This document shows, one piece after another, positions 12,862-63,129 of a stretch of DNA of 64,000 nt. Position 1 is the first letter of the stretch. Every line of letters begins with the position of its first letter. Source of the DNA: an uncultured Chloroflexia bacterium (GTDB taxonomy: Bacteria; Chloroflexota; Dehalococcoidia; UBA2979); NCBI GenBank assembly GCA_963728205.1, contig CAVSIV010000006.1, positions 320,001 to 384,000 of the forward strand, read 5' to 3'. The notes below the pieces were generated by a model. The model was not told the DNA's origin. It worked only from the letters and a program-made list of their open reading frames with translations, and ran no database searches. The position numbers were made by a program, and so were the translations under genes.

Positions 12862-14127
12862 GTGGTCGTGGCCGTCCGTCGATTGCGCCTCATGCTGGTG
12901 GCTCTGGTCGCTCTGTCTGGGGCTGTCCTCGTTGCCCCTGCCCCGAGTAGCCGGGCATCGGCACGCATCGTGGATCTCGGGCCGGCCGCCCGCTATCCGG
13001 CGGGATCGGTCGCCTTGTTCAGCGTAGCGGAAGACGGTAGCGGGCTCGTAGAGGCCCCCGCACGTTCCCAGACGGCTGTGTGGAACGGGAAGCTTGACGG
13101 TTGCCCGCCCGATCCGGTCGTCGGGATCCCGTTCGCGCTTGTGCGCCTGACGGACGGCTCGTTGATCGCACTGTCCACGATCAGCACGCATGGCCGCGCG
13201 CTCGTGCCGTGGGTCTCGGACTACGAGCGGTTCGGACGTGCGGGATGGTTCGTGGAACCCTGCCTCCTGGACACGTACGACGTGGACGGCACCCGCGTAT
13301 ATGGGCCGGCCGCGCGGAACTTGGATCGCTACGCGGTGGAGGTGAGGGACGGGCGGGTGCTCGTCGATCTCGGCGCCATGACGCGCGGCGAAGCGATTCC
13401 GGGGCGCAGCCGGTACGGAGGCACCACGTATGGCCCTGTGGCGGAGTATCCAACGGCCACGCCTCAGGCAGCTGCAACGGCGTCGCCTGAGGCCGCGCTT
13501 CCGGACTCAGGGGCAACGAAGCCCGTCGACTACTGGTCGTTGACGCCCTCCGGACAGCAGGCGCTCCGCCGTGCGCACCCCGGCGCCTTCCTCGCGCGCC
13601 TGGCGGCCCAGCCTGGAATGGTGCTCCACGTGCGGGAGACCGTGACCGAGGCGACGCCAGGAGTACGCACTACCTACGACTCCTTCGCGCGCATCGACGG
13701 TGACCGCGTAGTGGCCGTGCTCGTGCGGAGACTCGACGCGGTCGGACGCGTCATCGACGAGCAGATCCAGGTCGCCCGGAACACTCGGCTGCCGGACGGA
13801 CACGTCATCACCACGCATCCGCTTCCCACGATCACGGGACTACTGCCTGCGATCGCGCCGGAGTTCGCAAGGACGATGTTTGCGATGCATGAGACCGGCT
13901 CGGCTGCTCAACCGGTGCGCACACTTTTTCTCGAGTCACCGCCAAGCGCCAAGTTTCGTCGTGAGCTGGATATCGACGCGTCGAGTCACGTCGTCGTTGG
14001 ATACCGCACCTTCAGAGTCGATCGCGGTCAGAGAGTCCTTCTCACCTCTCGGACCACGGAGTTTGAGTGGGTACCGGCGCGAAACGCCCCCGCGGAACTG
14101 CCCGCAACGCACTCCATGGGGGGCTAG
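12862..14127 (+). CDS. Secreted Rieske-fold protein lacking canonical Fe-S ligands, plus C-terminal domain
   Basis: DLGPAARYPAGSV ... ALSTISTHGR..VPW ... WFVEPCLLDTYDVDGTRVYGPAARNLDRYAV. Confidence 0.65.
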   Translation: MVVAVRRLRLMLVALVALSGAVLVAPAPSSRASARIVDLGPAARYPAGSVALFSVAEDGSGLVEAPARSQTAVWNGKLDGCPPDPVVGIPFALVRLTDGSLIALSTISTHGRALVPWVSDYERFGRAGWFVEPCLLDTYDVDGTRVYGPAARNLDRYAVEVRDGRVLVDLGAMTRGEAIPGRSRYGGTTYGPVAEYPTATPQAAATASPEAALPDSGATKPVDYWSLTPSGQQALRRAHPGAFLARLAAQPGMVLHVRETVTEATPGVRTTYDSFARIDGDRVVAVLVRRLDAVGRVIDEQIQVARNTRLPDGHVITTHPLPTITGLLPAIAPEFARTMFAMHETGSAAQPVRTLFLESPPSAKFRRELDIDASSHVVVGYRTFRVDRGQRVLLTSRTTEFEWVPARNAPAELPATHSMGG

Positions 14128-14313
14128 GGACGCGGGCGATGCGAACGCTCGGCATAGCGGGATGTGGTGGCCGGGAGTGCAGGGAGATCTCTACATCACG
14201 ACCGAGCAACAACTGGATGATCAGCGGCACGCGCGGCGGACGCTGCCACGTCTGTCGCGCGCCGTCGCGTGGTCGCCGTCGCGAAATGGCGATGCGGGCG
14301 GTGGGCTCGCGTG

Positions 14314-14826
14314 ATGACGATGTCTCTCCGGCGGGCGTCTGCCCTCGCACTCGCCGTGGGCGTTGCACTGGCCGCCGCGATCGCAACGGTCGTGCTCCTC
14401 GTCCCGCGCGCGCCGCAAGTCGTCGTCGTCCCAAGCGCCGGCGGCAACGGTCTCACGGTGCGGCTCTTCTACGTCGACGATGCGGGAAGCGTGATCGCAG
14501 GGGGCTGGCCGCCCGCGCCGAGCGACCGCCCCGCCCGATCGTTCTACCTCGTTGAGAATCACGGAGAGGTTCACGCGCTCGAGGCGGCGGATCCCTCCGG
14601 CACCCGATGCTTCGTGATCTGGAGAGCGGACCTGCAGGCGTCGGAGCGGTTCCCTGGCATCGCAGACGGAGATCGGAAGGGATGGTTCAAGGGGCCGTGC
14701 CAGGGTGAGCTGTACGACCTGGACGGCGCGTGCGTCGCTGGCGTGTGCCGCGCGGGCGATCTCAGAAGCTTCCCGGCCACGCGGTCCGGATCATCGATTC
14801 GGATCGAACTTCCTGCGCCCGGTTGA
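14314..14826 (+). CDS. Membrane-anchored Rieske-fold protein lacking Fe-S ligands
   Basis: FYLV..GEVHALEAADPSGTRC..W ... WFKGPCQGELYDLDG. Confidence 0.6.
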   Translation: MTMSLRRASALALAVGVALAAAIATVVLLVPRAPQVVVVPSAGGNGLTVRLFYVDDAGSVIAGGWPPAPSDRPARSFYLVENHGEVHALEAADPSGTRCFVIWRADLQASERFPGIADGDRKGWFKGPCQGELYDLDGACVAGVCRAGDLRSFPATRSGSSIRIELPAPG

Positions 14827-15154: not shown

Positions 15155-15728
15155 ATGCCTCCGCTCTTCCGCCGCAGCCGCGGCCGCCCACCGCATCCCG
15201 ACATCCTCACTCCGGCGGAGTGGCGGGTCGTCGAGGAGGTGCGCAAGGGGCGCACGAATCCCGAGATTGCCGACGCGCTCGACCTCAGCCCGAACACGGT
15301 GAAGACGCACGTCTCGAGTGCGCTCGCGAAGCTCGGCTTCGCGCATCGCGATCAGCTCGCGACGTGGGAGGGACGGCCCGCGGCCGCCGGGCGTGCGTCC
15401 TCGGCGGCGACGGCGTGGACGGCGCTCCTCGGGCACCGGCGGATTGGCCCGGTGGCCACGGCCGCCGCCGGCGTGCTCGTCGTCGTCGCGGTCGGGATCG
15501 CGGCGCGTGCGGCCGTCGGCTCCGCGCGTGGCGGCGCCGGCGCGGGTGCCGCACGCACGCCCTCGCCGGCGGCGGCGCTCGAGCCGGGTGTCGCGCGGCC
15601 ATGTAAAAGTCCGCGCTGGTGGCCAGCGAAAAGTCCGCACCCTTGAGGTCACGGTGATGCACGAAGCCCCCGGAGCGGGGAATGGTGTGGTTGCGACCCT
15701 GCCATCTCCCCGCTCCGAAGGGGCTCCA

Positions 15729-17189
15729 TTGAAGACCGCGAGGGAGCAGTTGGACATCATCAGCGCGTACGAGCAGCTGGGAAGCTACCGCGCAGTGGCG
15801 GCGCTGTGCGGGACGACCGACAAGACGGTGAAGCGGATCGTCGAGCGCGGGCGCCAGGGCGAGCTCGAGCATCGGGCACGCGGGCAGCGACGACCGCATA
15901 AGACGGACACGGCCAGAGCGCTCGTGGAACAGCGGGTGCGGGAGACCGACGGGCGCATCAGCGCGAAGCGACTGCTCGTGGCGGCGCGCGCCGCCGGCTA
16001 CACAGGGTCGGACCGCAGCTTCCGACGCCTGGTCGCCGAGGCGAAGACGGGCTGGCGGGGCAAGCGGCGGATCTACCGGCCGTGGTTTCCACCGCCCGGT
16101 CAGTACCTCGCCTTCGACTGGGGATCGGAGGGGCGCGTCCACCTCTTCTGCGCCGTGCTGGCGTGGAGCCGCTACCGCTTCGTGCGCATCGCCGCCGACG
16201 AGCGCCAGGCGACGACCCTGCGGCTGCTCGCGGAGTGCTTCGAGGAGTTGGGCGGCGTCCCGGAGCTGGCGCTCACCGATCGCATGGCCTGCCTGCGCGC
16301 CGGGATCGTCGCCAACGTCATGATCCCGCACGCGGAGTACGTCCGCTTCGCCGCGCGTTACGGCTTCCGCCCCGACTTCTGCGAGGCGGCGGACCCCGAG
16401 TCGAAGGGACGAGTCGAGCGGCTCGTCGGCTACGCGAAGAGCGACCTGCTCGTCCCGGCCGGCGGCTGGCCCGATCTCGCCGCGGCGAACCGTGCGGCGC
16501 GCGACTGGTGCGCCGAGGTCAACGCACGTCCGCACGCCGAGACGCGCGAAGCGCCGACGATCCGGCTGGCACGCGAGCGTGAGGCGCTCCGACCGCTGCC
16601 CGCGTCGCGGCCGCTGCTCGCGCGCGGCGAGCGGCGCAAGGTCGACAAGCTGGCGACGGTGCGCTTCGGCTCGGCCCGCTACTCAGTGCCGCACCTCTAC
16701 GCCGGCGGCTTTGTCGAGGTCACCGCCAGCGACGGCGAGGTAGTGATCCGGCGCGACGACGAGGAGATTGCCCGCCATCCCCTGGTCGCCCCCGGTGAGG
16801 CCTCAATCTGCGACGACCACTACGGCGGGCCCCGGTCCGGACCGCGGCGCGCGGTGCGACCGCGCTCGGAGTCCGAGCACCGCTTCCTCGCGCTGGGACC
16901 GGAGGCCGAGCACTTCCTGCGCTCCGCCGCAGCCGCCGGCACGTCCCGCCTGGCGTCGGAGCTCGCGTCCATCGTCGAGCTCGAGCCGGCGTGGGAGCGT
17001 GACGTGCTCGTCCGCGCCCTCGAGCGCGCGACCTCCTTCCGCCGCTTCCGGGCGGCGGACGTGCGCTCCATCCTCGAGGCCGGAGCCGGCGTCGCCCAGC
17101 TCGCCGAGCGCGGCGAGCAGCTCCACCTGGAGCACCTGCCCGCGGTCGCGACGCGCTCGCTCGCCGACTACGCGCTGGTGCGGTCGTGA
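15729..17189 (+). CDS. istA: IS21 transposase IstA
   Basis: N-terminal HTH; FDWG, DRM and DPESKGRVE DDE elements; YSVP. Confidence 0.9.
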   Translation: MKTAREQLDIISAYEQLGSYRAVAALCGTTDKTVKRIVERGRQGELEHRARGQRRPHKTDTARALVEQRVRETDGRISAKRLLVAARAAGYTGSDRSFRRLVAEAKTGWRGKRRIYRPWFPPPGQYLAFDWGSEGRVHLFCAVLAWSRYRFVRIAADERQATTLRLLAECFEELGGVPELALTDRMACLRAGIVANVMIPHAEYVRFAARYGFRPDFCEAADPESKGRVERLVGYAKSDLLVPAGGWPDLAAANRAARDWCAEVNARPHAETREAPTIRLAREREALRPLPASRPLLARGERRKVDKLATVRFGSARYSVPHLYAGGFVEVTASDGEVVIRRDDEEIARHPLVAPGEASICDDHYGGPRSGPRRAVRPRSESEHRFLALGPEAEHFLRSAAAAGTSRLASELASIVELEPAWERDVLVRALERATSFRRFRAADVRSILEAGAGVAQLAERGEQLHLEHLPAVATRSLADYALVRS

Positions 17190-17963
17190 GCCGCGCGGTC
17201 GCTCCGCTCGCCCCCGACCTCGAGTCCGGGCTGCGCCGGCTCAAGCTCGCGCGCATCCGCGCCGTCGCGCCCGAGGTGCTGCAGACCGCGAAGACCCAGC
17301 GCTGGACGCCAGAGGAGCTGCTGCGCACGCTCGTCGAGGCCGAGTGCGCTGCACGCGACGAGGCCAACCTGCGCACGCGCATGCGCACCGCCGGCTTCCC
17401 CGCGGAGAAGCGGCTCGATGACTTCCGGGTCGACGAGTCGAGCGTGCCCGGCGGCACCTTCGACTACCTCGCTTCGCTGGAGTGGCTGCGCGCCCGCGAG
17501 AACGTCTGCCTGGTCGGTCCCGCCGGCACCGGCAAGTCGCATTTGCTCATCGCGCTCGGGCGCGCCGCCGTCGAGACCGGACACCGCGTGCGCTACTTCG
17601 CCGCTGCGGACCTCGTCGAACAGCTCTACCGCGGCCTCGCCGACAACTCGGTGGCTCGGGTGATCGACGGGCTGCTGCGCGCCGACCTGGTCATCTGCGA
17701 CGAGCTCGGTTTCGCCCCGCTCGACGACGTCGGCACGCAGCTCCTCTTCCGCTTCGTCGCCGCGGCCTACGAGCGGCGCTCACTCGGCGTCGCGAGCCAC
17801 TGGCCCTTCGCATCAGTGGGGACGCTTCCTGCCCGAGCCCACCACCGCCGTCTCGCTGCTCGACCGCCTCCTGCATCACGCCGTCGTCGTCACCACCGAG
17901 GGCGACTCCTTCCGCATGAAAGAGGCGCGAGCGAGAGGAGGACCGACCGTGCGCAGACGCTGA
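17186..17963 (+). CDS. istB: IS21 helper ATPase IstB (frameshift ~17815)
   Basis: GPAGTGKS Walker A; ICDELG Walker B; LLDRLLHH...GDSFR in shifted frame. Confidence 0.88.
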
Positions 17964-19519
17964 TCAGGACCAGGGGTGCGGACTTTTGGTTGGCCACCAG
18001 TGCGGACTTCGGTTTGGCCATTGACAGCCGGGGGCGACCACTGGGATAGCGCCGCTTCAGCCCGGAGAGATCAACACCTTGTCCGCATCGCCGTATCCGT
18101 CGGTGTCCATGAGCGCCGTCAACCGCGCTTTCGATGCATCGTCAGTGGATGCAGAGGGCTCGGCACTGCTCTACGACCGCTCGACGGGTCGCGTCTACGC
18201 AATCCGCGGGGTATGGGCCGTCTGCTTCCTGCCATCCGACGGTCCGCAGCCCCTCGCGCTAGCACTGACCCGCTCCGCCAACGGGAACTCAGCTCCTCAG
18301 CGCGCCCTGCTTCTGCGCCTCGATCCCTTCGAAGCGCGCGTGCTCGACGTCCCGATCCGCCCGGCTGGTCCTTGCCTCGGCGACTCCGGTCGGGGCGAGC
18401 ACGATTGGCAAGATCCGCACGCGATTCCGGTCGAAGTCCGCGGCGACCCGATGACCACCGCCGGGAGGCTGCTCCCAACCGGACGCTATGCCTTCGATCC
18501 CGACACGCTGCGCCTCACCTTTCGACAGGTCGAGCCGCCGTTCAACGCGGGACCGCCGGATGGAACGGTGGTTCATCGCTGGCCCGGCGTGCCCGCTGGT
18601 CCCTCGCTGGAGCTTGTCCGCCGACAGGGCCAGACGGACCTGGTCGATACGAACTCCGGACGCACGGTGCTCGTCGGCGTCGATCGCTACGACATCTCCC
18701 CGGATGGGCGGTTACTCGCGACGTACGCGTCCGCGCGGCCCGACGGCCCCCAGCACAGCTTCATCGTCGCCCTCGCCTCCGGGGCCGCGACCCCGATTGC
18801 CGTCGACATCACCGCCGGATTCGCCTGGTCCCCGGACGGTCGCTGGCTCGCCGGTGTGCGGGACGCCGCAAACGGGGGCGTCGTCGCCGTCCGCGTCGGA
18901 CAGACGTCCGGCCCCTCGATCCAGGTCGGCCCTGTGCTGGGTCCGTACCTCGATCGGTTCGCCCTGGGCTGGACGGCGGCCGGCCGCCTGCTGGTGGGGC
19001 GCGGCGGTGGAACCACAAACGAGACAACGGTCGAGACGATCGACCCGGCGACCGGCCGACTCGACACGCTGACCAGTTTGCTCGGTCCCGCGGTCTTCGT
19101 TGAGTCACCCGACGGCAGCGTCGCAGCGACAGGGGAGCGGGGAGTGGTCGCCTTGTACTCGCTGTCCAACGGAAATCGCATGGTTCCGCAACCGCTCGAA
19201 GGCATGGGTTTGACAGGACGGTTCCTCTTCTCCTGGTCCCCCAGTGGGCGCTGGCTGGCCGCGTTCCTTGACAACGGGCAGTCGTGACGCATCCGCTCGC
19301 TCAATCGGTCTGCCTTTGTGGAGGCTCCTCCAGTGGATCTCTCTCGGGCAGGTGGGTGTTGGATCGGTCGTAGCGGCGGGCCGCGCCAAGGCGCGAGTGC
19401 CGGCGGTTCGCGTGCCGAGCTGCCGATCGCGTCAATAGGTGAAGCTGCGGGCGGCGTCGAGCGCGTCGACATCGCCCGGCGCGAGGCGAACGGCGAGCCT
19501 GTTGCGGTAAGCTCCGGCG

Positions 19520-20248
19520 ATGGCTCGCCGCCTGCGCCTCGGCATCGACTTCGACGGCGTCATTTCCGACACGATCGCCGCGATGATCGACTACGCGTCT
19601 GCCGTGCACGGGATCGACCTCGCGCCTCATGAGTGCCTGGTGCCGGCCGGCCCGGCGCGTCTCGGCGTTGAGGCGTACCAAGCGCTGATCGCGGACGCGC
19701 ACGGCACCGAATACGCACTCGGCATGCCCGCGATCCCAGGCGCGCTCGAGGCAATCGCAGATCATGGCGCGCGGCGCGACGCCGTGATCGTTACGGCCCG
19801 CGGCGGCTCGGCGTTCGACCACACATCGACGTGGCTCGCGCGCGCCGGCCTGCGTGACGTGCTGCAAGACGTCGTGTCGTCTCGCGGCGTGACGAAAGCG
19901 GAAGTGGCGACGCGCCTCGGCCTCGACGTTCTGCTCGACGACGTGCCCGCGAACCCGCAGGACCTGCCACGATCGGTGGTGCCGGCTTCGTGGTCGGCCG
20001 TCTACAACGATGCCCTGCCGGTCGGCCGCCGCTGCGCCGCGTCGAGGGATGGGATGCATTCGCGGCGTTGGTCGCGGACCTGGCGGCCGCTAGCGCGCCT
20101 ATCCAGACCGAGAGGCAGAGGCCGCCCTGACACCCGGGCGGTGCGTGGCCCCCGTTCCTGGAGTTCGGCCCGGCCCGCATCGGCATGCCGGGGACGTACA
20201 CACCATCACCGGCGGCCTGTTCCCGTTGCCTGCTCCGATAGGCGCTGA
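19520..20248 (+). CDS. HAD-superfamily 5'-nucleotidase (NT5C-like); C-terminus probably frameshifted
   Basis: GIDFDGVISD, IVTAR, K, LLDD motifs; TAAGCT 6 nt before ATG. Confidence 0.7.
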   Translation: MARRLRLGIDFDGVISDTIAAMIDYASAVHGIDLAPHECLVPAGPARLGVEAYQALIADAHGTEYALGMPAIPGALEAIADHGARRDAVIVTARGGSAFDHTSTWLARAGLRDVLQDVVSSRGVTKAEVATRLGLDVLLDDVPANPQDLPRSVVPASWSAVYNDALPVGRRCAASRDGMHSRRWSRTWRPLARLSRPRGRGRPDTRAVRGPRSWSSARPASACRGRTHHHRRPVPVACSDRR

Positions 20249-20319: not shown

Positions 20320-20862
20320 GTGTCGATTCCCGCCCGCCTTCCCGATCGGCTGCTCTCCTGGGGTCGGCGCGGGGCTTCCGGGCCGGCACTTTCCGCGCCT
20401 ACCGGCCGAGTGCTGGCTGCCGATGGATCGGACCGGCGCCTGGTCACGAAGCAGGACGCGCCGTTCATCGCTGTCGCGGGGACGTGGGTGTCGAACGACC
20501 GCATTGCCGCATCGGTGGGTAGTACATCGTCCACCCCGGCCATCTTCGGGCTCGATGGCTCGGAGACGCCGGTGAGCGGGCTGCAGGTCGGCAGCGGCGG
20601 AGTGGCGACGCGCCTGGCCGACGGCCGGTGGGTCACCGGCTCGTTCCTGCGGGCGGGGCCGATTCGCGTGGGTATGGCCGGGGCGATGCACACGATCGCG
20701 GACGGACTTTCCCCGGCGCCGTCGCCGAATGGCGGCTGGGTGGCGTTCATCGCGGGCGCAACGCTGCGCGTCGTGCGGATCGACGGTACCGACGACCAGC
20801 AGGTCCTCGACCTCACCTCACGAGGGTGGGATCTTCCGTTTGGCCACCAGTGGGATCTTTAA
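20320..20862 (+). pseudogene. C-terminal fragment paralogous to lipoprotein 2343..3368
   Basis: DGSDRRLV...GTWVS.DR...FGLDGS...GSGG...RWV.GSF...PIRVG...AFIAGATLRV aligns colinearly; no signal peptide. Confidence 0.7.
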
Positions 20863-20949: not shown

Positions 20950-22198
20950 TCAGCGCGCCGGCGACTGCCACTGCGTCTGCCATGACACTCCGCCGTCGGC
21001 TGTGTGCAGGATCGCCGAGCGTCCTGTGAACATTGAACCGACGAGCCAGCCCGACGAAGCCGATCGGAATGCGGCGGCGGCCGGCTGCTCGAGATGCGGC
21101 ACAACCGAAGCGGGCGTGCCGACAACGTCGCCGCCGCGGCTGACCAGGACGAACGAGGTCGTCGGCTTGGTAGCGGCCGGCGACCAGCCGAACAGGACGG
21201 CGCCGCTCGCGTCCAGCGCACTGAAGGGTCCAGCTTCCCCCACGTCGAACCGGGCGGCGGCGTCAGGTTCAGTACAGCCACGCAACGACGCATTACAGAC
21301 CACCGTCTGGAAGCCGCCATCGTCTGCACCGTGGTACAGCCAGTAAGCGCAGGTGCCGGCGGCGCAGTTGCCGCGCGCGAGCGCCCAGACCGCCGTCGAT
21401 CCTGCGCACTGAGTGGAGCGAGCGCGACCGAACGCATCGCCGTTCGCCGGGGTGAACGCCTTCGTCCAGGTCCGTCCGGCGTCATGGCTGCGGTACAGAG
21501 CGGCGCTCTCGGTCATCAGCCACCCGTGGTGCGGGTCGCTGAAGCAAACGGACGCCGGGACCTGCGGCGCCGCGACGCGCTCCCACGTGAGTCCCCCGTC
21601 GGTGCTGTGCGCGAGGAACGAAACGCGGCTATCGCCGCGTTCGATGCCCCAGCCGTCGCTCGCCGAGTCGAAGCCCACCTCCTGCAGAGCCGGCGCCGGC
21701 ATCGGTAGCTCCCGCCAGCAGTCCCCGCCGTCGGACGTGACCAGCAGATGCGCTTTCCCGAGCGCCCAGCCGTGCTCCGCGTCGATGAACCGGACCGCTT
21801 GCAGCGCAGCTGTTCCGCGATACTGCTCGGCCCAATGCGCACCCCCGTCGCGCGTCGTGAGGATGCGCCCCGCACCGACCGCCCACCCGCGCGTGTCGGA
21901 GACGAACAGGATGTCGGCGAGCACCGGTGGGGCCGTCGTATCCGCCGCCGGCGTCGCGGTCGATTCACTCCCTACGCACGCGGTCGTGGAGGCTGCGGTC
22001 GTGGTCGGCGTCGGCACGGCGGTGGGCGTGACAGAGCCGGCGATCGCTGCGCCCGGGGACGCGGAGGCTCCTCCGCTCGCGGTGGTGGCTGGTCCGTGAG
22101 CGCCGCTGCAGGCGGTGAGAATTGGCACCAGGACGAGCGCGGCCACCATGCGCGGGCTGATGGCGATCGCTCTCGATGCGCGGCCACGTCTCAGCATG
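20950..22198 (-). CDS. YCF48/BNR-repeat lipoprotein
   Basis: Lipobox ILTAC; F...GWAVG and multiple TxDGGxxW repeats. Confidence 0.8.
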
Positions 22199-22407
22199 AG
22201 CGCTCCGAATCGAATCAGCCTGCCGCCGATGACAGTGGGTGCCCGACGGTGGCCAGAAAGCCAGACTGCCCGACCTCGGGCTCGAGCACCAGATCTCACG
22301 ACGTCGGCCCCACGCGGGCGTCATGCCAGAGCCGGAGCCGGGGCGAGCCGTACCGCGTCCTGGACGCACTACGGGACCAGGACGCTCAGCGCTCTCACCG
22401 CTGCCGG

Positions 22408-28259: not shown

Positions 28260-28484
28260 CTAGCGCGCTTTAGGTAAGCGATCATGGTGACCGTTCCGAG
28301 CGGGAAGTCCGAAACCGGACCCGGCGTCGAACAGTCCGCTGTGACCGCCGCCACAGGCGGCGATGGTCACGACCACGGCAGGGAGCGCCACCGCGAGCGT
28401 GAGCCGCATCCACCACGGCCGTCGCCGGTGCGCGCTGGCCGGGTCCGACCCTCGCGGAACGGTCGTAGGCGGCGGCTGGATCAT
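28260..28484 (-). pseudogene. Truncated duplicate of the N-terminus of Rieske-like lipoprotein 30347..30862
   Basis: 28278-28520 is near-identical to 30732-30958. Confidence 0.8.
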
Positions 28485-28603
28485 GACAGCCGCCGGGGCG
28501 TCAGACGGAAGACGACGAGGCGACCGCGACCGGCCCGCGGTCCTCCCGGCGTCCGTCGCAGGGCCATGCGCGCACCGCGCGGACAGGCATTGGGACGCGC
28601 CAG

Positions 28604-28966
28604 CTACGCGCGCTCGACCAGCCGGGCGAGGTCCCCCGGATCGAACGGCTTGAAGAGCGTGCGCGCCCCGAGCGCCGCGGTCGCGGCGGCGACCTTGCGC
28701 GAGGTCGTCATCGCCACCACCCGCAAGGCCTGGTCTCCGCTGGTCTCGTGCAGCCGACGGAGGTCATCAAGCCCCTCGCCGCTCGGAGCCGGGGGGTCGA
28801 GGAACAGGATGGTGGGGCCGAAGCAGTCGACCTCCGCGCACACGCCCGCCGGCGCCAGCACCGCGCGGACGTGGTGTCCCGCCTCCTCGAGATCCAGGCG
28901 GAGGAGGTCGGCGATGGCCCGGTCGTGCTCGATGATCAGCACGCGCTCGGCGCGCGAGGTCGCCAT
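28604..28966 (-). CDS. Single-domain atypical response regulator (duplicate)
   Basis: RVLIIEHD...FLDPP...AMTT...LFKPFD; copy of 43123..43485. Confidence 0.75.
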   Translation of the reverse strand: MATSRAERVLIIEHDRAIADLLRLDLEEAGHHVRAVLAPAGVCAEVDCFGPTILFLDPPAPSGEGLDDLRRLHETSGDQALRVVAMTTSRKVAAATAALGARTLFKPFDPGDLARLVERA

Positions 28967-29135
28967 GCCCGTTTCCGTCCTCCGCCATGACGGCAGTTCG
29001 CAGGCGCTCCCCGAGCGGCCGACCCACCGCGCCGGGCGCCCGCAGCATATGCGCTGCGAATCTGCTCCGAGCGCTGCACGGCCACGGGCGGCCCGTGGGA
29101 CCGGCACCGACCGGCCTCGCGGCCCGCAGCTCGCC

Positions 29136-29463
29136 TCACGAGTTCGCGGCCTCGAGGTAGCCGTGCACGGCGGCCGCCACGCGGGCGAAGGTGTCCGGCG
29201 CCTCCCACCCGTTGGAGAGGATCGCCAGCACGTAGGTGCCGAAGGGCGCCTTGACGATGGCGACGTCATGCGCGGCGCCCGCGTAGTCGCCGGTCTTGTT
29301 TCCGACGACGCTGCCGTCGTCGGGGATGCCGCTGGGGATGCGCGAGCGGATGCGCTGCTGCGCGAGCAGGTCGAACACCTGGGCGGCCACCGCGGGCGTC
29401 GGCTTCCCGCGCGCGATCGCCTCGAGCACGCGCGCCATGTCCGCCGCCGTGGTCGGCAGGGCC
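29136..29463 (-). pseudogene. C-terminal fragment of class A serine hydrolase (duplicate)
   Basis: TTAADM...NKTG...HDVAIV; copy of the 3' end of 43655..44851. Confidence 0.8.
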
Positions 29464-30249
29464 CAGGATACCCGGCGTGGCGATACACGGCTCGCCACGT
29501 ATCCCGCAGTACGTCCCGTGGGCGAGCACCCGCAGCGCGATTACGAGTCCGTCGACCACGACCGGCACATCGCGCCAGGGGAGCGTGAGCGATGCGACGG
29601 CTACTCCGGACACCGGAGTAGCAGAGACGGTGACTCGCGGATCAGTTCCAAATCGGTACGCGCGGAAGTCGACCCGCGTCGCGCTGGCCGGCACGACCGC
29701 GCTGACCTTGATCTGAACGCTGCCGACGACGTGGACCGTTCCACCCTTTGGGTCGGCGTGCGAATCGACGTAGGACGGCGTGAGCAGGCGGAGCTGCGCG
29801 GTCGCGGTGTCCCCGGCGGGCGCCGTCCTCGTGGGGGACGGGGACGCGGTGCGGCCCGTAGCGCCGGGCTGCACCGCTGCCCCGCGAAACGCGGCGATCA
29901 CGACAAGTGCCGCGAGCCCGGTTGCGACGGCGCCGCCAACGAGACGCGCAACTCGGGGCACCCCGAGCCCCCGCTCCATCAGCCAGCCGCCGAGCGCGAA
30001 GCCTCGCGTGCGCCTTGCCGAGGACGCCGGTGTTCCGGCCCACGCCGCGAGCGCCAATCGGTCCGAGCAGTCGAGCTTCGCGAGCATGCTCGAGACATGC
30101 GTCTTGATGGTAGGAACGGTGAGCCCGAGCCGCTCCGCGATCTCGGGATTCGAGAGTCCGTCGCGGACACAGTCGAGCACGCGCCACTCGGCGGGGGTCA
30201 GGACGTCGGGGTGCGGCGGCCGTCCACGAGCGTGTCGTCTCCAGGGCAT
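29266..30249 (-). CDS. LuxR HTH - TM - ectodomain protein; C-terminus replaced at duplication junction ~29463
   Basis: RGRPPHPDVLTPAEWRV...TIKTHVSSMLAKL; TM GAVATGLAALVVIAAF; beta-rich ectodomain. Confidence 0.75.
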   Translation of the reverse strand: MPWRRHARGRPPHPDVLTPAEWRVLDCVRDGLSNPEIAERLGLTVPTIKTHVSSMLAKLDCSDRLALAAWAGTPASSARRTRGFALGGWLMERGLGVPRVARLVGGAVATGLAALVVIAAFRGAAVQPGATGRTASPSPTRTAPAGDTATAQLRLLTPSYVDSHADPKGGTVHVVGSVQIKVSAVVPASATRVDFRAYRFGTDPRVTVSATPVSGVAVASLTLPWRDVPVVVDGLVIALRVLAHGTYCGIRGEPCIATPGILGPADHGGGHGARARGDRAREADARGGRPGVRPARAAAHPLAHPQRHPRRRQRRRKQDRRLRGRRA

Positions 30250-30346
30250 GAGCGCCAGCCTACGAGCGCCCGCGACGAATTACCTCATACCGTGCTGCCA
30301 CCACGAGCGCGAGACCGATGAAGGCGGGCTGCCGCGCGTTGGCATC

Positions 30347-30862
30347 TCAGTGGCTGCAATCGTCCCGACTGCCGGGGATCAGCGCTGCCGGAGAGAGCGT
30401 CACGATGACGTGCTCGTCGCGGACGCGGACGGGATAGCCGTCGAGGCCGCGCGGCGACGGTCCGAAGACCCGGCACCCCGTGAGCTCGTAGGTCGACCCG
30501 CTGCAGGGGTCACGGAACCAGCCCGTCCCGGGCTCGTCGTCGAATTTGAAGTCAGGGCGCCAGGGCACCGTGCAGTGCCGTGCCGGATGCGAGTCCCTCG
30601 CCGAGAGGGCGAGGATCGTCCCATCCTCGAGATGCACGACGTGGAAGACGATCGTTGCGGGCGACAGATTGGCCAGCGGGACGGGGTACCCGCCGGCGGC
30701 GCTCCGCCCGACTTCGTGACCGTCGGCGTACGCGATCGTGGTGACCGTTCCGAGCGGGAAGTCCGAAACGGGACCGGCGTCGAACAGTCCGCTGTGACCG
30801 CCGCCACAGGCGGCGATGGTCACGACCACGGCAGGGAGCGCCACCGCGAGCGTGAGCCGCAT
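30347..30862 (-). CDS. Rieske-fold lipoprotein lacking Fe-S ligands
   Basis: Lipobox TIAAC; DAGPVSDFPLGTV; ALSARDSHPARHCTVPW; WFRDPCSGSTYELTG.RVFGPSPRGLD. Confidence 0.7.
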   Translation of the reverse strand: MRLTLAVALPAVVVTIAACGGGHSGLFDAGPVSDFPLGTVTTIAYADGHEVGRSAAGGYPVPLANLSPATIVFHVVHLEDGTILALSARDSHPARHCTVPWRPDFKFDDEPGTGWFRDPCSGSTYELTGCRVFGPSPRGLDGYPVRVRDEHVIVTLSPAALIPGSRDDCSH

Positions 30863-31071
30863 CCACCACGGCCGTCGCCGGTGCGCGCTGGCCGGGTCCG
30901 ACCCCTCGCGGCGGCTGGGTCATGGACAGCCGCCGGGGCGTCGGACGGAGGACGACGACACGGTCCTCGGAGGGTCCCTCTCTATGGCAACTGCATGATG
31001 GCGTCGTGCAATTCATGGCTCCCCTGTCGGTAGAGCTTGCCGTTGAACTCGCCATAGCCCTTCGCACTCAA

Positions 31072-31644
31072 TCATCTGGCTCGAAGCATTCGCGTGAATG
31101 CCTGCGGACTGTACTCGTGACTGGCCTCTCCCAGGACGACGCCGTTCAGCAAGGTGTCGAGGGTGCGATAGATAACGGAGAAGAACTCACCTGACCACGA
31201 ACCGTCGCGGCCGGGGTGAAGGGTTGCATCAGGGATGGACTGTTGCTCGATCTGGCTGAATGCACCCGGATGTGACATGACCGCGCGTAAGAGGTCGTTC
31301 TTGTCGAGATCCAGCCCCACGATCACCAGGCCGTTTCGGTACCAGCCGGTGATCTCGCCTGCGAGTTGAGGCAGCGAGCGCTTGTCGACGATCACACCGG
31401 ACACGCCCGCGGGCAGCCGCTGCCGGGCTTCGTCCAGTGACGCGCTCGTGATTCGCAGTTGGGCACCCGACGGCAGATGGAGGGTTGTGGCCGTCACGTT
31501 CCAGAAGGTCGGCTCCCCGCCGTCGATGGTCGTTGCGGACGCGCGCATACGCGGAACGGTCAGCGCAGCGGCGATGACTGCCAGCGCAGCAAGAGTCACA
31601 GGGATCGACGCTCGTGCCTTGTTGGGGACGCGGTCCGCGTTCAT
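31072..31644 (-). CDS. Secreted hypothetical protein
   Basis: Signal peptide ending RASA; 190-aa ORF. Confidence 0.6.
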   Translation of the reverse strand: MNADRVPNKARASIPVTLAALAVIAAALTVPRMRASATTIDGGEPTFWNVTATTLHLPSGAQLRITSASLDEARQRLPAGVSGVIVDKRSLPQLAGEITGWYRNGLVIVGLDLDKNDLLRAVMSHPGAFSQIEQQSIPDATLHPGRDGSWSGEFFSVIYRTLDTLLNGVVLGEASHEYSPQAFTRMLRAR

Positions 31645-32151
31645 GCGTTCACGCTAGAAGTCGGGTCCGTCGCCCGCCTCGGCCGCGCGGGCGATTTCTT
31701 CCCTCACTCCGGCGATGGACCCCGAGGCCCGACGAAGGCGCACAGGGCCACGGGCCCCGATCCGGGTGCTCGAGCCTAGAGACCCGGCGGGGGCCAGGTC
31801 ACGAAGATCGCGCTCCCGTCCGGAGTCCAGCGGACGAGCGGCTTGCCGCCCGCATCCCCATCGATGGGCGCGACGGGCGCGGTGCGCTGGACGCCCGTCG
31901 CGAGGTCGACCACCACAATCTCGTACACCTGGCGGTAGGTGTGCGCCGCCGATCGCGCGAACGCGACCTTCGTGGCGTCGGGGGAGAAGACGCCGATGGC
32001 GGCGTCGCGCAGGCACAGCCCGTCGGGTCCGGCGAGCGGGTGCTCGACGAGGATCCCGCCGCACCCCGGCGCGTCCGAGAGCAGCGCCGCGGGCACGCCA
32101 CCGGCGCGTGCGATCCCGTGCTCGTCGGGACGCGCGCCGAAGAATGCGCCG
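31563..32151. repeat. Segmental duplication of 39225..39813
   Basis: Near-identical DNA including the 3' end of a propeller gene, the intergenic region and an MNADRVP start. Confidence 0.9.
31776..32151 (-). pseudogene. C-terminal fragment duplicate of lipoprotein 39439..40850
   Basis: Shared ...VFSPDATKVAFAR...WTPDGSAIFVTWPPPGL. Confidence 0.8.
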
Positions 32152-32358: not shown

Positions 32359-32571
32359 ATGACGCTCCCAGCCGTTACCCCCGCCGAGATGAAGATCCTC
32401 CTGTGCCTACTCTCAGCAATGGCCCCGAAACGAATCGCTGAGCAACTCTGCGTCAGTGAACATACGGTCCGCACGCACATCAAGCGCTTGCATGCGAAGT
32501 TCGGCACTCACTCGGTCCCGGAACTAATCCTCACCGCCAGCCGGAAACCACCTCAACCTCCTGCACATTGA
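32359..32571 (+). CDS. Small stand-alone LuxR-type HTH regulator
   Basis: VTPAEMKIL...IAEQLCVSEHTVRTHIKRLHAKFG. Confidence 0.75.
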   Translation: MTLPAVTPAEMKILLCLLSAMAPKRIAEQLCVSEHTVRTHIKRLHAKFGTHSVPELILTASRKPPQPPAH

Positions 32572-38856: not shown

Positions 38857-39306
38857 CAGTCACCCCCTTCGACGGGTCGAAGCGCCGCGGCGAGCGCGAC
38901 GAGTTCGTCGGGGGGAAAGCGGGCGCTGAACACCGCCGCGGTGCCGCCGACGGTGACGCGCAGCTCGCCGACCTCGCCCGCGACGCACAGCTCCGCCGGC
39001 CCGAGCGACGTTGTCACTGCTTCGAGCACCGGCTCGGGCGGCTCCTCGCCGGCCGCGCGCGCGGGAGGCGGGGCGCTCTCGATCGGCGGGTCGCAGACGA
39101 GCCGCGGCGGCGTCTGGGCGGGGCCGAGGCGCAGCTCCGCCGAGGGCTCGCGCGCCTCAGCACCGGCCGAGTACTCGATGCGCGCCTCCTGGCCGGCGGC
39201 TCCACTGTGCCAGCCGGCGATGCGGCGCAGCGGCGATGATCGCCAGTGCAGCGAAGGTCGCAAGGATGGAAGCTCGTGCCCCCTTGGGGACGCGGTCCGC
39301 GTTCAT
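38856..39306 (-). pseudogene. Chimeric remnant: MNADRVP signal peptide fused out of frame to an unrelated C-terminal fragment
   Basis: Homology to the 31644 start ends ~39225; downstream frame ends PVEGGD with TGATG overlap. Confidence 0.5.
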
Positions 39307-39438
39307 GCGTTCACGCTAGAAGTCGGGAACCGTGCCCGCCTCGGCCGCGCGGGCGATTTCTTCCCTCACTCCGGCCATGGACTCCGAGGCCCGGCGAAGG
39401 CGCACAGGGCCACGGGCCCCGATCCGGGGTGCTCGAAC

Positions 39439-40850
39439 CTAGAGACCCGGCGGGGGCCAGGTCACGAAGATCGCGCTCCCGTCCGGAGTCCAGCGGACGA
39501 GCGGCTTGCCGCCCGCATCCCCGTCGATGGGCGCGACGGGCGCGGTGCGCTGGACGCCCGTCGCGAGGTCGACAACCACAATCTCGTACGCCTGGCGGTA
39601 GGTGTGCGCCGCCGACCGCGCGAACGCGACCTTCGTGGCGTCGGGGGAGAAGACGCCGATGGCGGCGTCGCGCAGGCACAGCCCGTCGGGTCCGGCGCGC
39701 GGGTGCTCGACGAGGATCCCGCCGCACCCCGGCGCGTCCGAGAGCAGCGCCGCGGGCACGCCATCGGCGCGTGCAATCCCGTGCTCGTCGGGACGCGCGC
39801 CGAAGAATGCGCCGAGCACCGGGCTGCCCGGCCACTTCGCGAGTACCGCGCCGGTCACGGGATCGACGACCGTCGTCTCCTTCGCGAGGGACGGGTCCTG
39901 CGGCGAGTAGACGAGCGCTGGCCCCTGCCACGCCCAGTCCGCCGGCCACGCCACCGACGGCAGGTCGAGCTTCGTTCCGCGGTCGAGGTCCTCGAGCACG
40001 GTGCCGCCCTGGTCGTCGGGGTGGAGGAGACGGTCGCCGTCGGGCGACCACGTCGGCGAGCTCAGGTAGCCACCCATGTGGTGACCGTCGCCCAGCGAGC
40101 GGGTCGTGTGGCGCTCGGCGTCGTAGAGGTACGCCGCGCTCCCGCCGGTCTCCAGGTCGAGGAGGCAGCGGCCCGACGGCGACCAGCTGGGGACGGCACG
40201 CAGGTCACAGCCGCCGCAGTCGACGAGCGTCGCGTCGATGCGCACGTTGGCGCCGGAGCGGAGGTCGAGCACCCAGTCCTGGTAGGTGCCGCCCGGCCGG
40301 TTCGAGGCGCCGGGGGAGTCGACGCGGTAGAGCATGCGCGTGCCGTCTGGCGAGAAGCTGCCGCAGTTCGCGCGGTAGGCGACGCCCTCGATGACGGCGT
40401 GCAGGTCGCCGCGCTGCGCCTGGGTGCACGCTGGCACGGGCGCGGCGTCCGGGGCGGGGGTGGGGGTCGGGTAGGCATCGCGCTCCTCGAGGCGCGTGCC
40501 GTCGGGGGCGAAGTGGAGGTATTGCTGCGTGTCCTCCACGTGCAACCAGACGCTGCCGTCGTCGAGCATGTACGAGAAGTAGGCGACGGTGCCGTGGAGG
40601 AGGTCGTGCGGCGCGAGCGTACCGGCGTCGAGAAAGAGGGCGCCGTGGGCGGGGCCAGGCGTCGGCGTCAGGACCGGGGTCGGCGACGGGGCCGGGGTGG
40701 CCGTCGACAAGGGTGTCGGAACTGCGGACGACGTGCCAATCGCGGCTGCGGGCGTCGCCGTCCGCGTCGGCTGGGCGCGAGCGCAGCCGGCGACGACCAA
40801 ACCGCCACGAAGAGCGCGAAGAGCGCGAGCGGGATTGGGCGCAACCGCAT
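39439..40850 (-). CDS. TolB-like beta-propeller lipoprotein (frameshift ~40800)
   Basis: VVAGC lipobox; FSPDG/WSPSG/WSPDG/WTPDG repeats; CGGCD. Confidence 0.75.
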
Positions 40851-42951: not shown

Positions 42952-43122
42952 GCATCATAGCGCCTCGAAGTGATAACCCGCCATAGCGGATGACGAAATT
43001 GGCGAGGCCGTACGCGATGACCGCGCATCCGGGGCTGGGCGCGCGGGACCGGCCCGCGGTCTTCCCGGCCTCCGCTGCAGGACCATGCGCGCACCGCGCG
43101 GACAGGCATCGGGACGCGCCAG

Positions 43123-43485
43123 CTACGCGCGCTCGACCAGCCGGGCGAGGTCCCCCGGATCGAAGGGCTTGAAGAGCGTGCGCGCCCCGAGCGCCTCGGC
43201 CGCGGCGGCGACCTTGCGCGAGGTCGTCATCGCCACCACCCGCAAGGCCTGGTCTCCGCTGGTCTCGTGCAGCCGACGGAGGTCATCAAGCCCCTCGCCG
43301 CTCGGAGCCGGTAGGTCGAGGAACAGGACGGTCGGGCCGAAGCAGTCGACCTCCGCGCACACGTCCGCCGGCGCCAGCACCGCGCGGACGTGGTGTCCCG
43401 CCTCCTCGAGATCCAGGCGGAGGAGGTCGGCGATGGCCCGGTCGTGCTCGATGATCAGCACGCGCTCGGCGCGCGAGGTCGCCAT
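43123..43485 (-). CDS. Single-domain atypical response regulator
   Basis: VLIIEHD, LFLDL, AMTT, KPFD. Confidence 0.75.
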   Translation of the reverse strand: MATSRAERVLIIEHDRAIADLLRLDLEEAGHHVRAVLAPADVCAEVDCFGPTVLFLDLPAPSGEGLDDLRRLHETSGDQALRVVAMTTSRKVAAAAEALGARTLFKPFDPGDLARLVERA

Positions 43486-43654
43486 GCCCGTTTCCGTCTT
43501 CCGCCATGACGGCAGTTCGCAGGTGCTCCCCGAGCGGCCGACCCACCGCGCCGGGCGCCCGCAGCATATGCGCTGCGAATCTGCTCCGAGCGCTGCACGG
43601 CCACGCGCCGCCCGTGGGACCGGCACCGACCGGCCTCGCGGCCCGCAGCTCGCC

Positions 43655-62095: not shown

Positions 62096-63129
62096 GTGGG
62101 CGGGCCCGTGCGTTACTTCCGCGCCGATGACGGCACCAACATCGCGTACACCGACGTGGGTGCGGGGCTGCCCTTCGTCGCGCTCCCGACGATGCCGTTC
62201 TCGCACCTGCAGCACATGCAGGACAGCCCGTCGCTGGCGCGGTGGTTCGACGCCATCGGTCGCGGCCGGCGCCTGATCCAGTACGACGCGCGCGCCACGG
62301 GGATGTCGGACCGCGGCCGCCCCGACTTTTCGATCGACCGGCAGGTGCGCGACCTCGAGCAGCTGCTCGACGCGGTGGACGTGGAGCGCGCCGCGCTCTT
62401 TGGTGCGCTGCACGCGAGCACGATCGCGATCGCCTTCGCCGCGCAGCGGCCAGAGCGCGTGTCCCACCTCGTGCTCTGGCACGCGTACGCGCGCGCCTCC
62501 GACATGTTCCAGAACACGATGGTCGTGACCATCTCGGAGCTGATCCACAAGAACTGGCACGTGTTCACGGACGCGGTGACGTTCTCGAACTTCGGGTGGA
62601 CGTCGGGCGAGAGCGCGCGGGAGTTCGCGACGATGGCGCGGGCGGCGATCGACGAGACGCAGGGACCGGTGGCGTTCGGGCAGCTCGATGTCGAACGACG
62701 TGCGCGCGCTCCTGCCGCTGGTGGAGGTGCCGTCGCTGGTGCTGACGCGCGAGGAGCCGCTCGCCCCGCCGGCGGAGGTGGCGCGCGGCCTGGCCGCAGA
62801 CCTGCCCGACGCGCGGCTCGTGGCGGTGCCGGGCAAGGCGATGGCGCCGTGGGTCGGCGACCCGGCGCCGGCGGCGGCCGCCCTCGACGAGTTCCTGCCG
62901 GAGAAGCTGCCGGGGACGGCCGCGGCGTACGTCGAGACGCTGAGCCCGCGCGAGCTCGAGGTGCTGCGGCTGATTCTCGTCGGGCCACAGCAACCAGCAG
63001 ATCGCGAACGAGCTGACGCTGAGCGTGGGGACGGTGAAGTCCCACGTGAGCAACATCTTCAGCAAGCTGCAGGTGTCGAACCGCACGCAGGCGGTCGCCC
63101 GCGCCCGCGACTCCGAGCTGATTCACTAG
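62096..63129 (+). CDS. Alpha/beta-hydrolase-fold sensor fused to LuxR HTH (frameshifts ~62690 and ~62980)
   Basis: DGTNIAY...YDARATGMSD; DVRALLPLVEVPSLV; LSPRELEVL...TVKSHVSNIFSKL; TATGAT 7 nt before GTG. Confidence 0.8.

Follow-up and report, generated by a model that had tools for sequence, protein, structure and literature searches.

What is understood of transcription regulators that cross the membrane once comes almost entirely from proteobacterial proteins of the OmpR type, such as ToxR, CadC and TcpP. LuxR-type helix-turn-helix (HTH) domains, for their part, require dimerisation. An excerpt of the survey by Demey et al. 2023 (PMC10269533) defines a TTR as a protein with a DNA-binding domain and at least one transmembrane (TM) region. 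The supplementary table of that survey (PMC10269533) counts 4,943 transmembrane regulators with GerE (9.8%) against 3,459 with Trans_reg_C (6.9%), so the assumption of a first-pass annotation of the locus described here, that such proteins typically use OmpR-type domains, does not hold. The first 30 of the 5,037 GerE occurrences in the list include single-TM "GerE,Kelch_1..." proteins of Roseiflexus castenholzii, Chloroflexus aggregans and Chloroflexus Y-400-fl, in rows named Rcas_0145, Cagg_2569 and Chy400_2071. These rows are listed and not discussed; GerE, LuxR and propeller have no occurrence in the main text of the paper. Among PD40 entries of the same census, the first 30 of 872 occurrences come from 12 proteins, all of them Trans_reg_C.

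An N-terminal LuxR HTH is the minority arrangement among PAS-LuxR proteins, according to part of a recent preprint (10.64898/2026.03.15.711900), and to that extent the earlier argument that the present architecture is rare stands. Calling the topology unusual was nonetheless an overstatement, since the HTH-TM module described below occurs in at least 125 representative clusters. Our search of CC-licensed PMC articles and bioRxiv, with subscription journals outside its range, returned no description of a regulator with an N-terminal LuxR HTH, a TM segment and a propeller. Here we describe a locus in a 64,000-nucleotide stretch of Chloroflexota DNA, the whole of which we call the window, that is an IS-made pseudogene; the gene belongs to a LuxR-type variant, so far uncharacterised, of the transmembrane regulators that resemble ToxR and CadC.

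Results

An IS21 element splits a single gene in the window, and its insertion point is codon 145, within the spacer of the regulator gene. The element, its ends and the two parts of the gene are as follows.

15155..15588, + strand: 5' part of the split regulator gene, codons 1-144 and the first 2 nt of the next; shares 81% identity with P0004 residues 1-~146
15583..15588, no strand: target-site duplication GCCGGG, left copy, read from sequence
15589..18026, + strand: IS21-family insertion sequence, 2,438 bp, ends 5'-TG...CA-3'
15607..15645, no strand: left terminal inverted-repeat block, with a repeated AAAGTCCGC motif inside
15657..17189, + strand: istA transposase, 510 aa, with NF033546, rve and Mu-transpos_C_2 matches
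17186..17965, + strand: istB helper ATPase, with a 4-nt overlap with the istA stop
17971..18009, no strand: right terminal inverted-repeat block, pairing with 15607..15645
18027..18032, no strand: target-site duplication GCCGGG, right copy, read from sequence
18033..19287, + strand: 3' part of the split gene, comprising the remaining Pro/Thr/Ala spacer and a predicted PD40-like beta-propeller domain of ~400 aa

The limits and the GCCGGG duplication proposed in the first-pass annotation could be read directly from the window sequence: the element begins with TGTC and ends with GACA, and the 6-bp duplication is perfect on both flanks. The terminal inverted repeats are 39 nt long and 90% complementary. 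For the IS21 family transposase profile NF033546, which has a cut-off of 160, IstA scored 213.1 bits, and its Pfam matches to rve (33 bits) and Mu-transpos_C_2 (56 bits) identify it as a DDE transposase. IstB matched PF01695 at 143 bits and NF038214 at 187.8 bits, under the cut-off of 200, with profile positions 1-196 of 232 in frame. The istB frame shifts near 17808-17815, leaving the last ~36 profile positions in the +1 frame, which may reflect either a defective IS copy or an assembly indel. Members of the IS21 family duplicate 4-8 bp of target. The element resembles that family in its istA and istB with stop/start overlap, its TG...CA ends, its multi-repeat terminal inverted repeats and its 6-bp duplication, and differs from it in that istB of the window copy switches frame near 17810. 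Self-BLASTN detected no second copy of the element in the window.

Joining 15155-15588 to 18033-19287 in silico gave 563 codons with a sole, terminal stop, that is, the single frame of about 562 aa that had been predicted to appear on excision. Open frames arise commonly by chance at a composition of 70.7% GC; the decisive evidence for a single gene is therefore an uninterrupted homologue, P0004 (568 aa), in which Pfam recognizes both GerE and PD40. P0004 is 81% identical to the N-part over 100% of its length and 78% identical to the C-part over 99%, and the alignment is gap-free at the exact junction (P0004 ...LEPG-AASGLAPLMPGEIN; window ...LEP|G|ATTGIAPLQPGEIN). Today the 5' frame enters the IS and stops at 15646, encoding an HTH+TM stub of 163 aa; for the 3' part the source record gives P0003, a protein of 392 aa that lacks a signal peptide. 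Automatic annotation thus breaks an IS-inactivated regulator gene into two ORFs that look unrelated.

Each segment that had been assigned from the letters alone, an N-terminal LuxR HTH, a TM helix, a Thr/Pro linker and a propeller, was recovered when we examined the restored protein. Its N-terminal half contains the following features.

15179..15202, + strand: N-terminal arm RGRPPHPD, residues 9-16, invariant columns in the family
15203..15364, + strand: LuxR/GerE-type tetrahelical HTH, residues 17-70, PF00196 54.3 bits
15443..15505, + strand: predicted single transmembrane helix, residues ~97-117, from hydropathy and the P0004 model

The HTH score is well above the PF00196 GerE cut-off of 23.5 and places the domain in that family. 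Searches of PDB sequences gave 23 matches at E <= 0.001, including ComA, VraR, DevR, GerE and NarL, with E values down to 1.3e-7; these and the NCBIfam matches are LuxR/NarL-type DNA-binding domains. In the AlphaFold model of P0004 the four HTH helices have pLDDT values of 96-98. A Pfam search for PF00486 (Trans_reg_C, the OmpR-type winged helix) gave no match in the regulator at E <= 1. In the arm, G10, R11, P12, H14, P15 and D16 are invariant in an alignment of 46 family members, and the N-terminal motif of the family reads GRPxHPDxLTPxEW. We take the RGRP core of the arm to resemble an AT-hook. The Kyte-Doolittle maximum (19-residue window) is 2.29, at residues 97-115 of the restored protein, and the P0004 model has a helix at 103-120 at a pLDDT of only 52-57. 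With a DNA-binding domain and a TM region, the latter predicted from hydropathy and AlphaFold, in one polypeptide, the protein falls under the TTR definition given above.

Between the TM helix and the C-domain lies a Pro/Thr/Ala spacer, predicted to be disordered (pLDDT 36-48 in the P0004 model). The C-domain, ~400 aa and all-beta, carries a repeated SPDG(R)xLA motif and matched PF07676 PD40 over one repeat (27.4 bits, cut-off 20.9). Two cysteines of the C-part, Cys64 and Cys114, are invariant and may be joined by a disulfide outside the cytoplasm. Its model has 34 strands at a pLDDT of 74.9. All 500 PDB fold matches counted were at E <= 0.001, with TM-scores of only 0.23-0.41; those listed include WD40 domains, TolB, designed 7-bladed proteins and enzymes of beta-propeller fold. 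A profile search returned 48 matches, four of them close relatives; of the other 44, all those named by their source are PD40/WD40 proteins, and the distant matches include seven Trans_reg_C+PD40 proteins. By sequence profile and model, then, the C-domain is a predicted PD40-like beta-propeller.

The HTH is probably inside the cell and the propeller outside, because two lipoproteins share the C-domain and because the family obeys the positive-inside rule. P0026 and P0027 carry the same C-domain after a lipobox signal peptide, without the HTH. When K+R were counted in the 15 residues on either side of the hydrophobic segment, more preceded than followed it in 84 of 126 proteins, the reverse held in 10, and 32 were ties. 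The window protein is itself a tie, with 2 R on each side.

We also asked how widely the HTH-TM module is distributed. It was present, identified by the N-terminal motif together with a peak of hydrophobicity at 70-140, in 125 of the best 150 representative matches, and 132 of the best 150 relatives have such a peak at the same site as the TM segment of the window protein. Among the 125, 105 are at least 250 aa long, and GerE is N-terminal in every one of these (105/105). Their ectodomains include propeller repeats (18), LRR (5), FN3 (2) and LysM (1), and across the family PD40, RCC1, Kelch, NHL, LRR, FN3 and LysM types are swapped. The full-length architecture is not confined to P0004, as PD40 is also borne by P0050, P0067, P0082, P0124, P0128, P0157 and P0163; P0036 carries Kelch. 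Neither outcome that would have overturned the first-pass reading, a missing TM prediction or a lack of full-length homologues, was thus observed. An ESM Atlas search with P0004 returned no usable match. The module occurs in 436 stretches of species-representative genomes, with a top identity of 54% among the best 80 of the 436; those 80 include neither the source genome nor the P0004 contig. The regulator family is thus large, uncharacterised and mostly from Chloroflexota, and its design is interesting and not unique.

The neighborhood contains a paralogue of the module and several Rieske-like genes.

12862..14127, + strand: upstream exported protein, N-terminal ~170 aa Rieske-like, BLASTP E 5e-21 to 30347-30862
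14269..14826, + strand: Rieske-like protein directly upstream, membrane-anchored or exported, 185 aa, BLASTP E 3e-10 to 30347-30862
29464..30252, - strand: HTH-TM module paralogue with another ectodomain, 46% identity over 142 aa
30347..30862, - strand: Rieske-like exported protein directly upstream of the paralogue, PF13806 Rieske_2 22 bits, below cut-off

The protein at 12862..14127 is a possible partner or target of the regulator, by association only. The Rieske-like pairing was seen at 1 of 77 fetched loci of the family (L071) and is not family-wide. Pfam assigned no family to 10 of the 14 neighboring ORFs scanned, so apart from this pairing the context is uninformative on function. The 3' end of the paralogue has been replaced by a duplicated segment.

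Discussion

We propose, with a probability of about 0.7, that the gene before insertion encoded a single-pass transmembrane transcription regulator, a one-component receptor acting in the manner of ToxR or CadC, and that it is now inactivated by the IS. The cytoplasmic N-terminus would consist of the invariant basic arm RGRPPHPD and the LuxR/NarL-type HTH, joined by a tether of ~25 residues to one membrane helix, beyond which the Pro/Thr/Ala spacer would lead to an extracytoplasmic PD40-like beta-propeller of ~400 aa. A peptide, glycan or protein outside the cell may be the ligand of the propeller, and its binding would alter how the protein in the membrane pairs or how stable it is, whereupon the LuxR HTH, still anchored, would bind or release nearby promoters. 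Control of dimerisation by the sensor has been reported for an N-terminal LuxR HTH in soluble FG214, in the part of the preprint that deals with this protein (bioRxiv 10.64898/2026.03.15.711900). The arrival of IS21 in codon 145 has left the HTH+TM stub of 163 aa and, apart from it, an orphaned propeller ORF lacking an export signal, and the receptor is therefore inactivated.

Three other explanations bear on this proposal. That the two halves are unrelated adjacent genes, or that the assembly, confused by a repeated IS, produced a false junction, seems to us highly improbable. The DNA probably comes from a metagenome-assembled genome, whose record lists the C-part as a protein of its own (P0003, 392 aa), and the istB frame change could be an assembly indel; however, the 6-bp direct repeats are perfect and the IS ends intact, P0004 is colinear with both halves without a gap, and the window holds no second IS copy that could mislead assembly. 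It is also very unlikely that the N-terminal domain is a sigma-region-4-like protein-interaction module without DNA binding, in which case the protein would be a membrane decoy or anti-factor. Sigma70_r4_2 did match, at 26.1 bits and just over its cut-off of 25.7, but the overlapping GerE match scored twice as high (54.3 bits), the profile and PDB matches are to LuxR/NarL-type DNA-binding domains, and Pfam found no sigma region 2. Moreover, soluble cousins pair the same module with a Glyoxalase/VOC domain, in a layout typical of one-component regulators.

The remaining alternative keeps the architecture and changes the signalling step: the protein would be a latent transcription factor, and regulated proteolysis, with a first cut at site 1, within the ectodomain or the spacer, followed by intramembrane cleavage, would free the HTH (residues 1-~95) into the cytoplasm. 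Anti-sigma factors offer a parallel in their release by regulated proteolysis. The long disordered spacer is a plausible protease substrate, 3 of the 105 family ectodomains have weak MucB_RseB and LolA-like matches, and there are papers, consulted here in excerpt, on cleavage-dependent CadC activation and on TcpP proteolysis. We nevertheless judge this route unlikely, as the scan of 14 neighboring ORFs revealed no recognisable protease gene, and the short HTH+TM-only relatives (14 of the best 150 are under 150 aa) may be metagenomic fragments.

If the anchored one-component receptor is the correct reading, the family applies the logic of ToxR, CadC and TcpP to an N-terminal LuxR-type HTH, in hundreds of sequence clusters with freely exchanged ectodomains, and could reveal by what means an HTH that depends on dimerisation is governed from the cell exterior, and which signals beta-propeller ectodomains detect. 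More tentatively, the GRPxHPD arm, the LuxR HTH and the single TM segment may form a conserved cytoplasmic cassette onto which Chloroflexota, in lineages of the Dehalococcoidia/Tepidiformaceae type with many paralogues per genome, have shuffled protein- and glycan-binding ectodomains. The RGRP arm may be an AT-hook-like minor-groove clamp that would help the membrane-tethered HTH to capture DNA, and upstream exported Rieske-like proteins may be co-components in some lineages. If true, the shuffled cassette would be a major undescribed route of extracytoplasmic sensing in Chloroflexota.

Among described systems, ToxR, CadC and TcpP have the order of parts predicted for the regulator: an N-terminal cytoplasmic DNA-binding domain, one TM helix and an extracytoplasmic sensor. 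Unlike ToxR and CadC, the regulator has a LuxR/GerE tetrahelical HTH in place of an OmpR-type winged helix, and its family has the invariant GRPxHPD arm. We do not count it as a member of the ToxR/CadC family, as PF00486 had no match at E <= 1; its working mode would be analogous. In excerpted entries of the census, the single-TM "Trans_reg_C, PD40..." proteins of Shewanella, Idiomarina, Colwellia and Phenylobacterium share its type of sensor repeat (PMC10269533). Identity as an ECF or sigma-70 factor was rejected, since only Sigma70_r4_2 matched (26.1 bits), under the stronger GerE match, and region 2 had no match. Formosa agariphila BguR, as described in part of its preprint (bioRxiv 10.64898/2026.01.10.698779), has the reversed order of signal peptide, two propellers, Y_Y_Y, TM and C-terminal GerE; it is a 940-aa, PUL-linked protein from Bacteroidota with propellers of another type. 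The window protein, its domains being in the opposite order, is therefore not a BguR-type membrane one-component regulator.

Two groups of soluble proteins share the N-terminal LuxR-type HTH. FG214 of Fimbriimonas ginsengisoli, in the excerpted account (bioRxiv 10.64898/2026.03.15.711900), follows it with a sensor domain but lacks a TM segment and senses through a cytoplasmic PAS-haem domain. The GerE+Glyoxalase/VOC proteins of Sphingomonas, Erythrobacter and Kribbella also have the HPDxLTPxE motif, but are without TM and carry a cytoplasmic VOC sensor. Rcas_0145, Cagg_2569 and Chy400_2071, judged from their list rows (PMC10269533), resemble the regulator in that GerE is the leading domain, the TM is single and the ectodomain is a beta-propeller, and in coming from Chloroflexota, and differ in having a Kelch propeller rather than PD40. 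Since family member P0036 bears Kelch, the GerE-Kelch combination belongs to the family, and these catalogued relatives in cultured Chloroflexus and Roseiflexus make the design open to experiment.

An IS21 element interrupts a single putative receptor gene

A regulator gene in the window, with its N-part at 15155-15588 and its C-part at 18033-19287, is split by an insertion sequence. The insertion limits, target duplication and restored frame described in the first-pass annotation were all present where it had placed them. The 2,438 bp between the GCCGGG copies start with TGTC and end with GACA.

15583-15588 and 18027-18032: GCCGGG target duplication, two copies, read from the sequence
15607-15645 / 17971-18009: terminal inverted-repeat blocks, 39 nt, 90% complementary
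15657-17189: istA, NF033546 "IS21 family transposase", 213 bits (cut-off 160)
from 17186: istB, overlapping the istA stop, NF038214 188 bits, PF01695 143 bits

The istB gene (17186-17965) shifts frame near 17808-17815: translation from 17186 follows the IstB profile no further than position 196 of 232, and the conserved IstB C-terminus (…LLDRLLHH…) is found in the +1 frame, which closes with a stop at 17963. Either this IS copy is defective or the assembly has an indel.

Removal of 15589-18032 by script left a single frame, 563 codons long and free of stops until the last, predicting a 562-aa joined protein. Because the G+C content of the window is 70.7%, long open frames alone say little. We regard the uninterrupted homologue P0004 (568 aa; precomputed Pfam GerE and PD40) as the decisive control, and its alignment argues for a single gene: it aligns to 99% of the C-part at 78% identity and to 100% of the N-part at 81%, and is colinear and ungapped across the exact junction. 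Only three C-part matches were found in a 5.8-billion-cluster collection: P0004, a garbled 545-aa relative (P0005), and the source record's own 392-aa protein (P0003), which is the window's own ORF.

The element interrupts codon 145, within the spacer. What remains upstream is a 163-aa stub of HTH and TM helix that stops at 15646, and the propeller ORF has no export signal; therefore, the receptor is inactivated by the IS in the source genome.

Domain anatomy and predicted membrane topology

The joined protein had been read as an N-terminal LuxR HTH, a hydrophobic helix and a propeller-type C-domain, and its GerE match, hydropathy peak and PD40 match bear this out.

residues 9-16: basic arm RGRPPHPD
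residues 17-70: LuxR/GerE HTH, PF00196 54.3 bits (cut-off 23.5)

NCBIfam matches of the N-part were EpsA, MalT, CsgD and NarL, each at its C-terminal HTH, and 23 PDB sequences matched the HTH at E <= 0.001, with ComA, VraR, DevR, GerE and NarL at the top. The Kyte-Doolittle 19-residue maximum of the joined protein (2.29) fell at residues 97-115. An AlphaFold model of P0004 built on a 50-sequence alignment had four HTH helices (pLDDT 96-98), a lone helix at 103-120 (pLDDT 52-57), disordered residues 121-167 and an all-beta region at 190-567. We take the RGRP core of the invariant arm to resemble an AT-hook; minor-groove contact by the arm is a guess from that likeness.

In the C-part, a single PD40 repeat exceeds the cut-off (27.4 vs 20.9 bits) and SPDG(R)xLA motifs recur; the model of this part (4-sequence alignment) has 34 strands, with pLDDT 74.9 and pTM 0.70. 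Among the PDB fold matches listed (E ~1e-7 to 1e-5), some are WD40 domains, TolB, a tandem beta-propeller and designed 7-bladed proteins by their own descriptions; others are propeller enzymes such as YbhE-type 6-phosphogluconolactonases, aromatic amine dehydrogenase and oligogalacturonate lyase. Because TM-scores were only 0.23-0.41, the model supports a beta-propeller fold class but no blade number. A C-domain profile search returned 48 proteins, 4 of them close relatives; all source-named proteins of the other 44 were PD40/WD40 proteins, and the matches included Ser/Thr kinases with PD40 propellers and seven Trans_reg_C+PD40 proteins.

Two C-domain relatives lacking an HTH, P0026 (47% identity) and P0027 (33%), start with a lipoprotein-type signal peptide, so the C-domain is exported elsewhere. 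Counting K+R in the 15 residues either side of the hydrophobic segment, we found more before than after in 84 of 126 family members (reverse in 10, tie in 32); the window protein itself is a tie. Together with an N-terminal HTH without a signal peptide, the lipoprotein relatives and the family bias support a predicted topology with HTH inside and propeller outside. Cys64 and Cys114 of the C-part protein P0002 (window ~18223-18225 and ~18373-18375) are invariant in 4/4 C-domain homologues. They may pair as a disulfide, in keeping with an extracytoplasmic site.

Distribution of the family

With P0004 as query, a full HMMER scan across 1.84 billion representatives yielded 3,341 matches at E <= 1e-3 and 667 at <= 1e-10. 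Among the best 150 of the 3,341, the arm/helix-1 motif lay in the first 60 residues of 138, a hydrophobic peak started at 70-140 in 132, and 125 had both. Residues G10, R11, P12, H14, P15, D16, L18, T19, P20, E22, W23, R30, A39, K59, R65 and W71 were invariant in a 46-member alignment. We ran a Pfam scan on the 105 members among the best 150 listed that had motif, peak and a length >= 250 aa, and all 105 carried an N-terminal GerE at E <= 0.001. Their ectodomains were propeller-type (PD40 8, 7 above cut-off; RCC1_2 7; Kelch 1; NHL 1; SBBP/DUF5122 1) or other (LRR 5, FN3 2, LysM 1, weak LolA-like/MucB_RseB 3, DUF4367 1), with no Pfam family in the remaining 75.

Scanning 185,579 species-representative genomes for HPD[VI]LTP[AR]E gave 448 stretches, 436 of them confirmed; the best 80 of these came largely from MAGs of Dehalococcoidia, Tepidiformaceae and other Chloroflexota, in which a genome holds many paralogues. 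In 77 fetched loci holding 83 motif ORFs, the hydrophobic segment occurred in 54/61 ORFs from Chloroflexota-labelled records, 2/2 from an unclassified MAG and 0/20 from other phyla. The four non-Chloroflexota ORFs scanned encode ~205-aa soluble proteins without a TM segment, each a GerE+Glyoxalase/VOC protein with an N-terminal HPDxLTPxE HTH; together they make up a sister group of soluble one-component regulators with the LuxR domain at the N-terminus.

L059 312-935: Sphingomonas ginsenosidimutans
L070 5992-6600: Kribbella rubisoli
L030 5995-6609: Erythrobacter MAG
L053 5995-6615: Actinomycetota MAG

The source genome has at least two further family members, P0006 (encoded on the minus strand of the window at 30252-29464; 46% identical across 142 aa) and P0007 (573 aa, 75% identical in the N-part). 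A tblastn search with the N-part also gave two weaker LuxR-type HTH matches, at 62983-63090 (+; E 2e-6) and 32374-32505 (+; E 4e-4).

Gene neighborhood

Both HTH-TM genes in the window have genes for exported or anchored proteins directly upstream on the same strand.

12862-14127 (+), 14269-14826 (+) and 30347-30862 (-): exported/anchored, weakly Rieske-like proteins (PF13806 22 bits, below cut-off)

These proteins are mutually homologous (BLASTP E 5e-21, 3e-10 and 2e-6), and the same pairing occurred in 1 of the 77 fetched loci (L071 5643-5930). By association, they may be co-components or regulated targets.

Segmental duplications link 28519-29463 with 43038-43982 (96%, 945 bp), 31563-32151 with 39225-39814 (95%), and 28274-28518 with 30728-30958 (91%). 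From about residue 263 on, the 3' end of P0006 has been replaced by the first of these duplications, so a further family member within the window is rearranged as well. Within this segment, whose other copy is at 43038-43982, sits a C-terminal fragment of a Beta-lactamase2-family protein (PF13354; 29136-29498, minus strand; 63 bits, profile positions 134-213 of 214). A BNR/Asp-box, Ycf48-like propeller protein (PSII_BNR, 87 bits) is encoded 1.7 kb downstream of the regulator gene at 20950-22299 (-), separated from it by ORFs at 19520-20248 (weak NT5C-like HAD match, 23 bits) and 20320-20862.

Proposed mechanism and comparison with known systems

We read the intact protein as a probable transmembrane one-component regulator of the ToxR/CadC-like kind. 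On this reading, occupancy of the ectodomain would govern whether the tethered LuxR HTH pairs, or how stable it is, and the HTH would bind DNA as a dimer. Dimer dependence is established for NarL/GerE-type domains, and a sensor-driven monomer-dimer switch has been reported for the N-terminal LuxR protein FG214 of Fimbriimonas ginsengisoli (bioRxiv 10.64898/2026.03.15.711900). The main rival, judged less likely, is regulated proteolytic release of the HTH, for which the disordered spacer would be the route.

Demey et al. 2023 (PMC10269533) counted 50,302 transmembrane transcription regulators, taking as such any protein that combines a DNA-binding domain with one or more TM regions. Their supplementary table gives GerE 4,943 (9.8%), Trans_reg_C 3,459 (6.9%) and PD40 321. 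All 12 PD40 proteins among the supplement matches listed are Trans_reg_C+PD40, and the GerE rows listed include single-TM "GerE,Kelch_1..." proteins of Roseiflexus castenholzii, Chloroflexus aggregans and Chloroflexus Y-400-fl; the main text does not mention GerE, LuxR or propellers. The first-pass annotation, right on anatomy, had thus overstated rarity in calling the topology unusual, given this GerE share, the catalogued GerE-Kelch proteins and a recurrent family.

BguR (bioRxiv 10.64898/2026.01.10.698779), like the window protein, links propellers and GerE via one TM helix, but in the inverse domain order. ToxR-family proteins have a winged helix; because the window protein does not, its gene is not a ToxR-family member, but represents a LuxR-type version of such a system. 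The architecture is catalogued and recurrent but uncharacterised as far as literature searches reach, and its interest rests in the family more than in the IS-broken copy.
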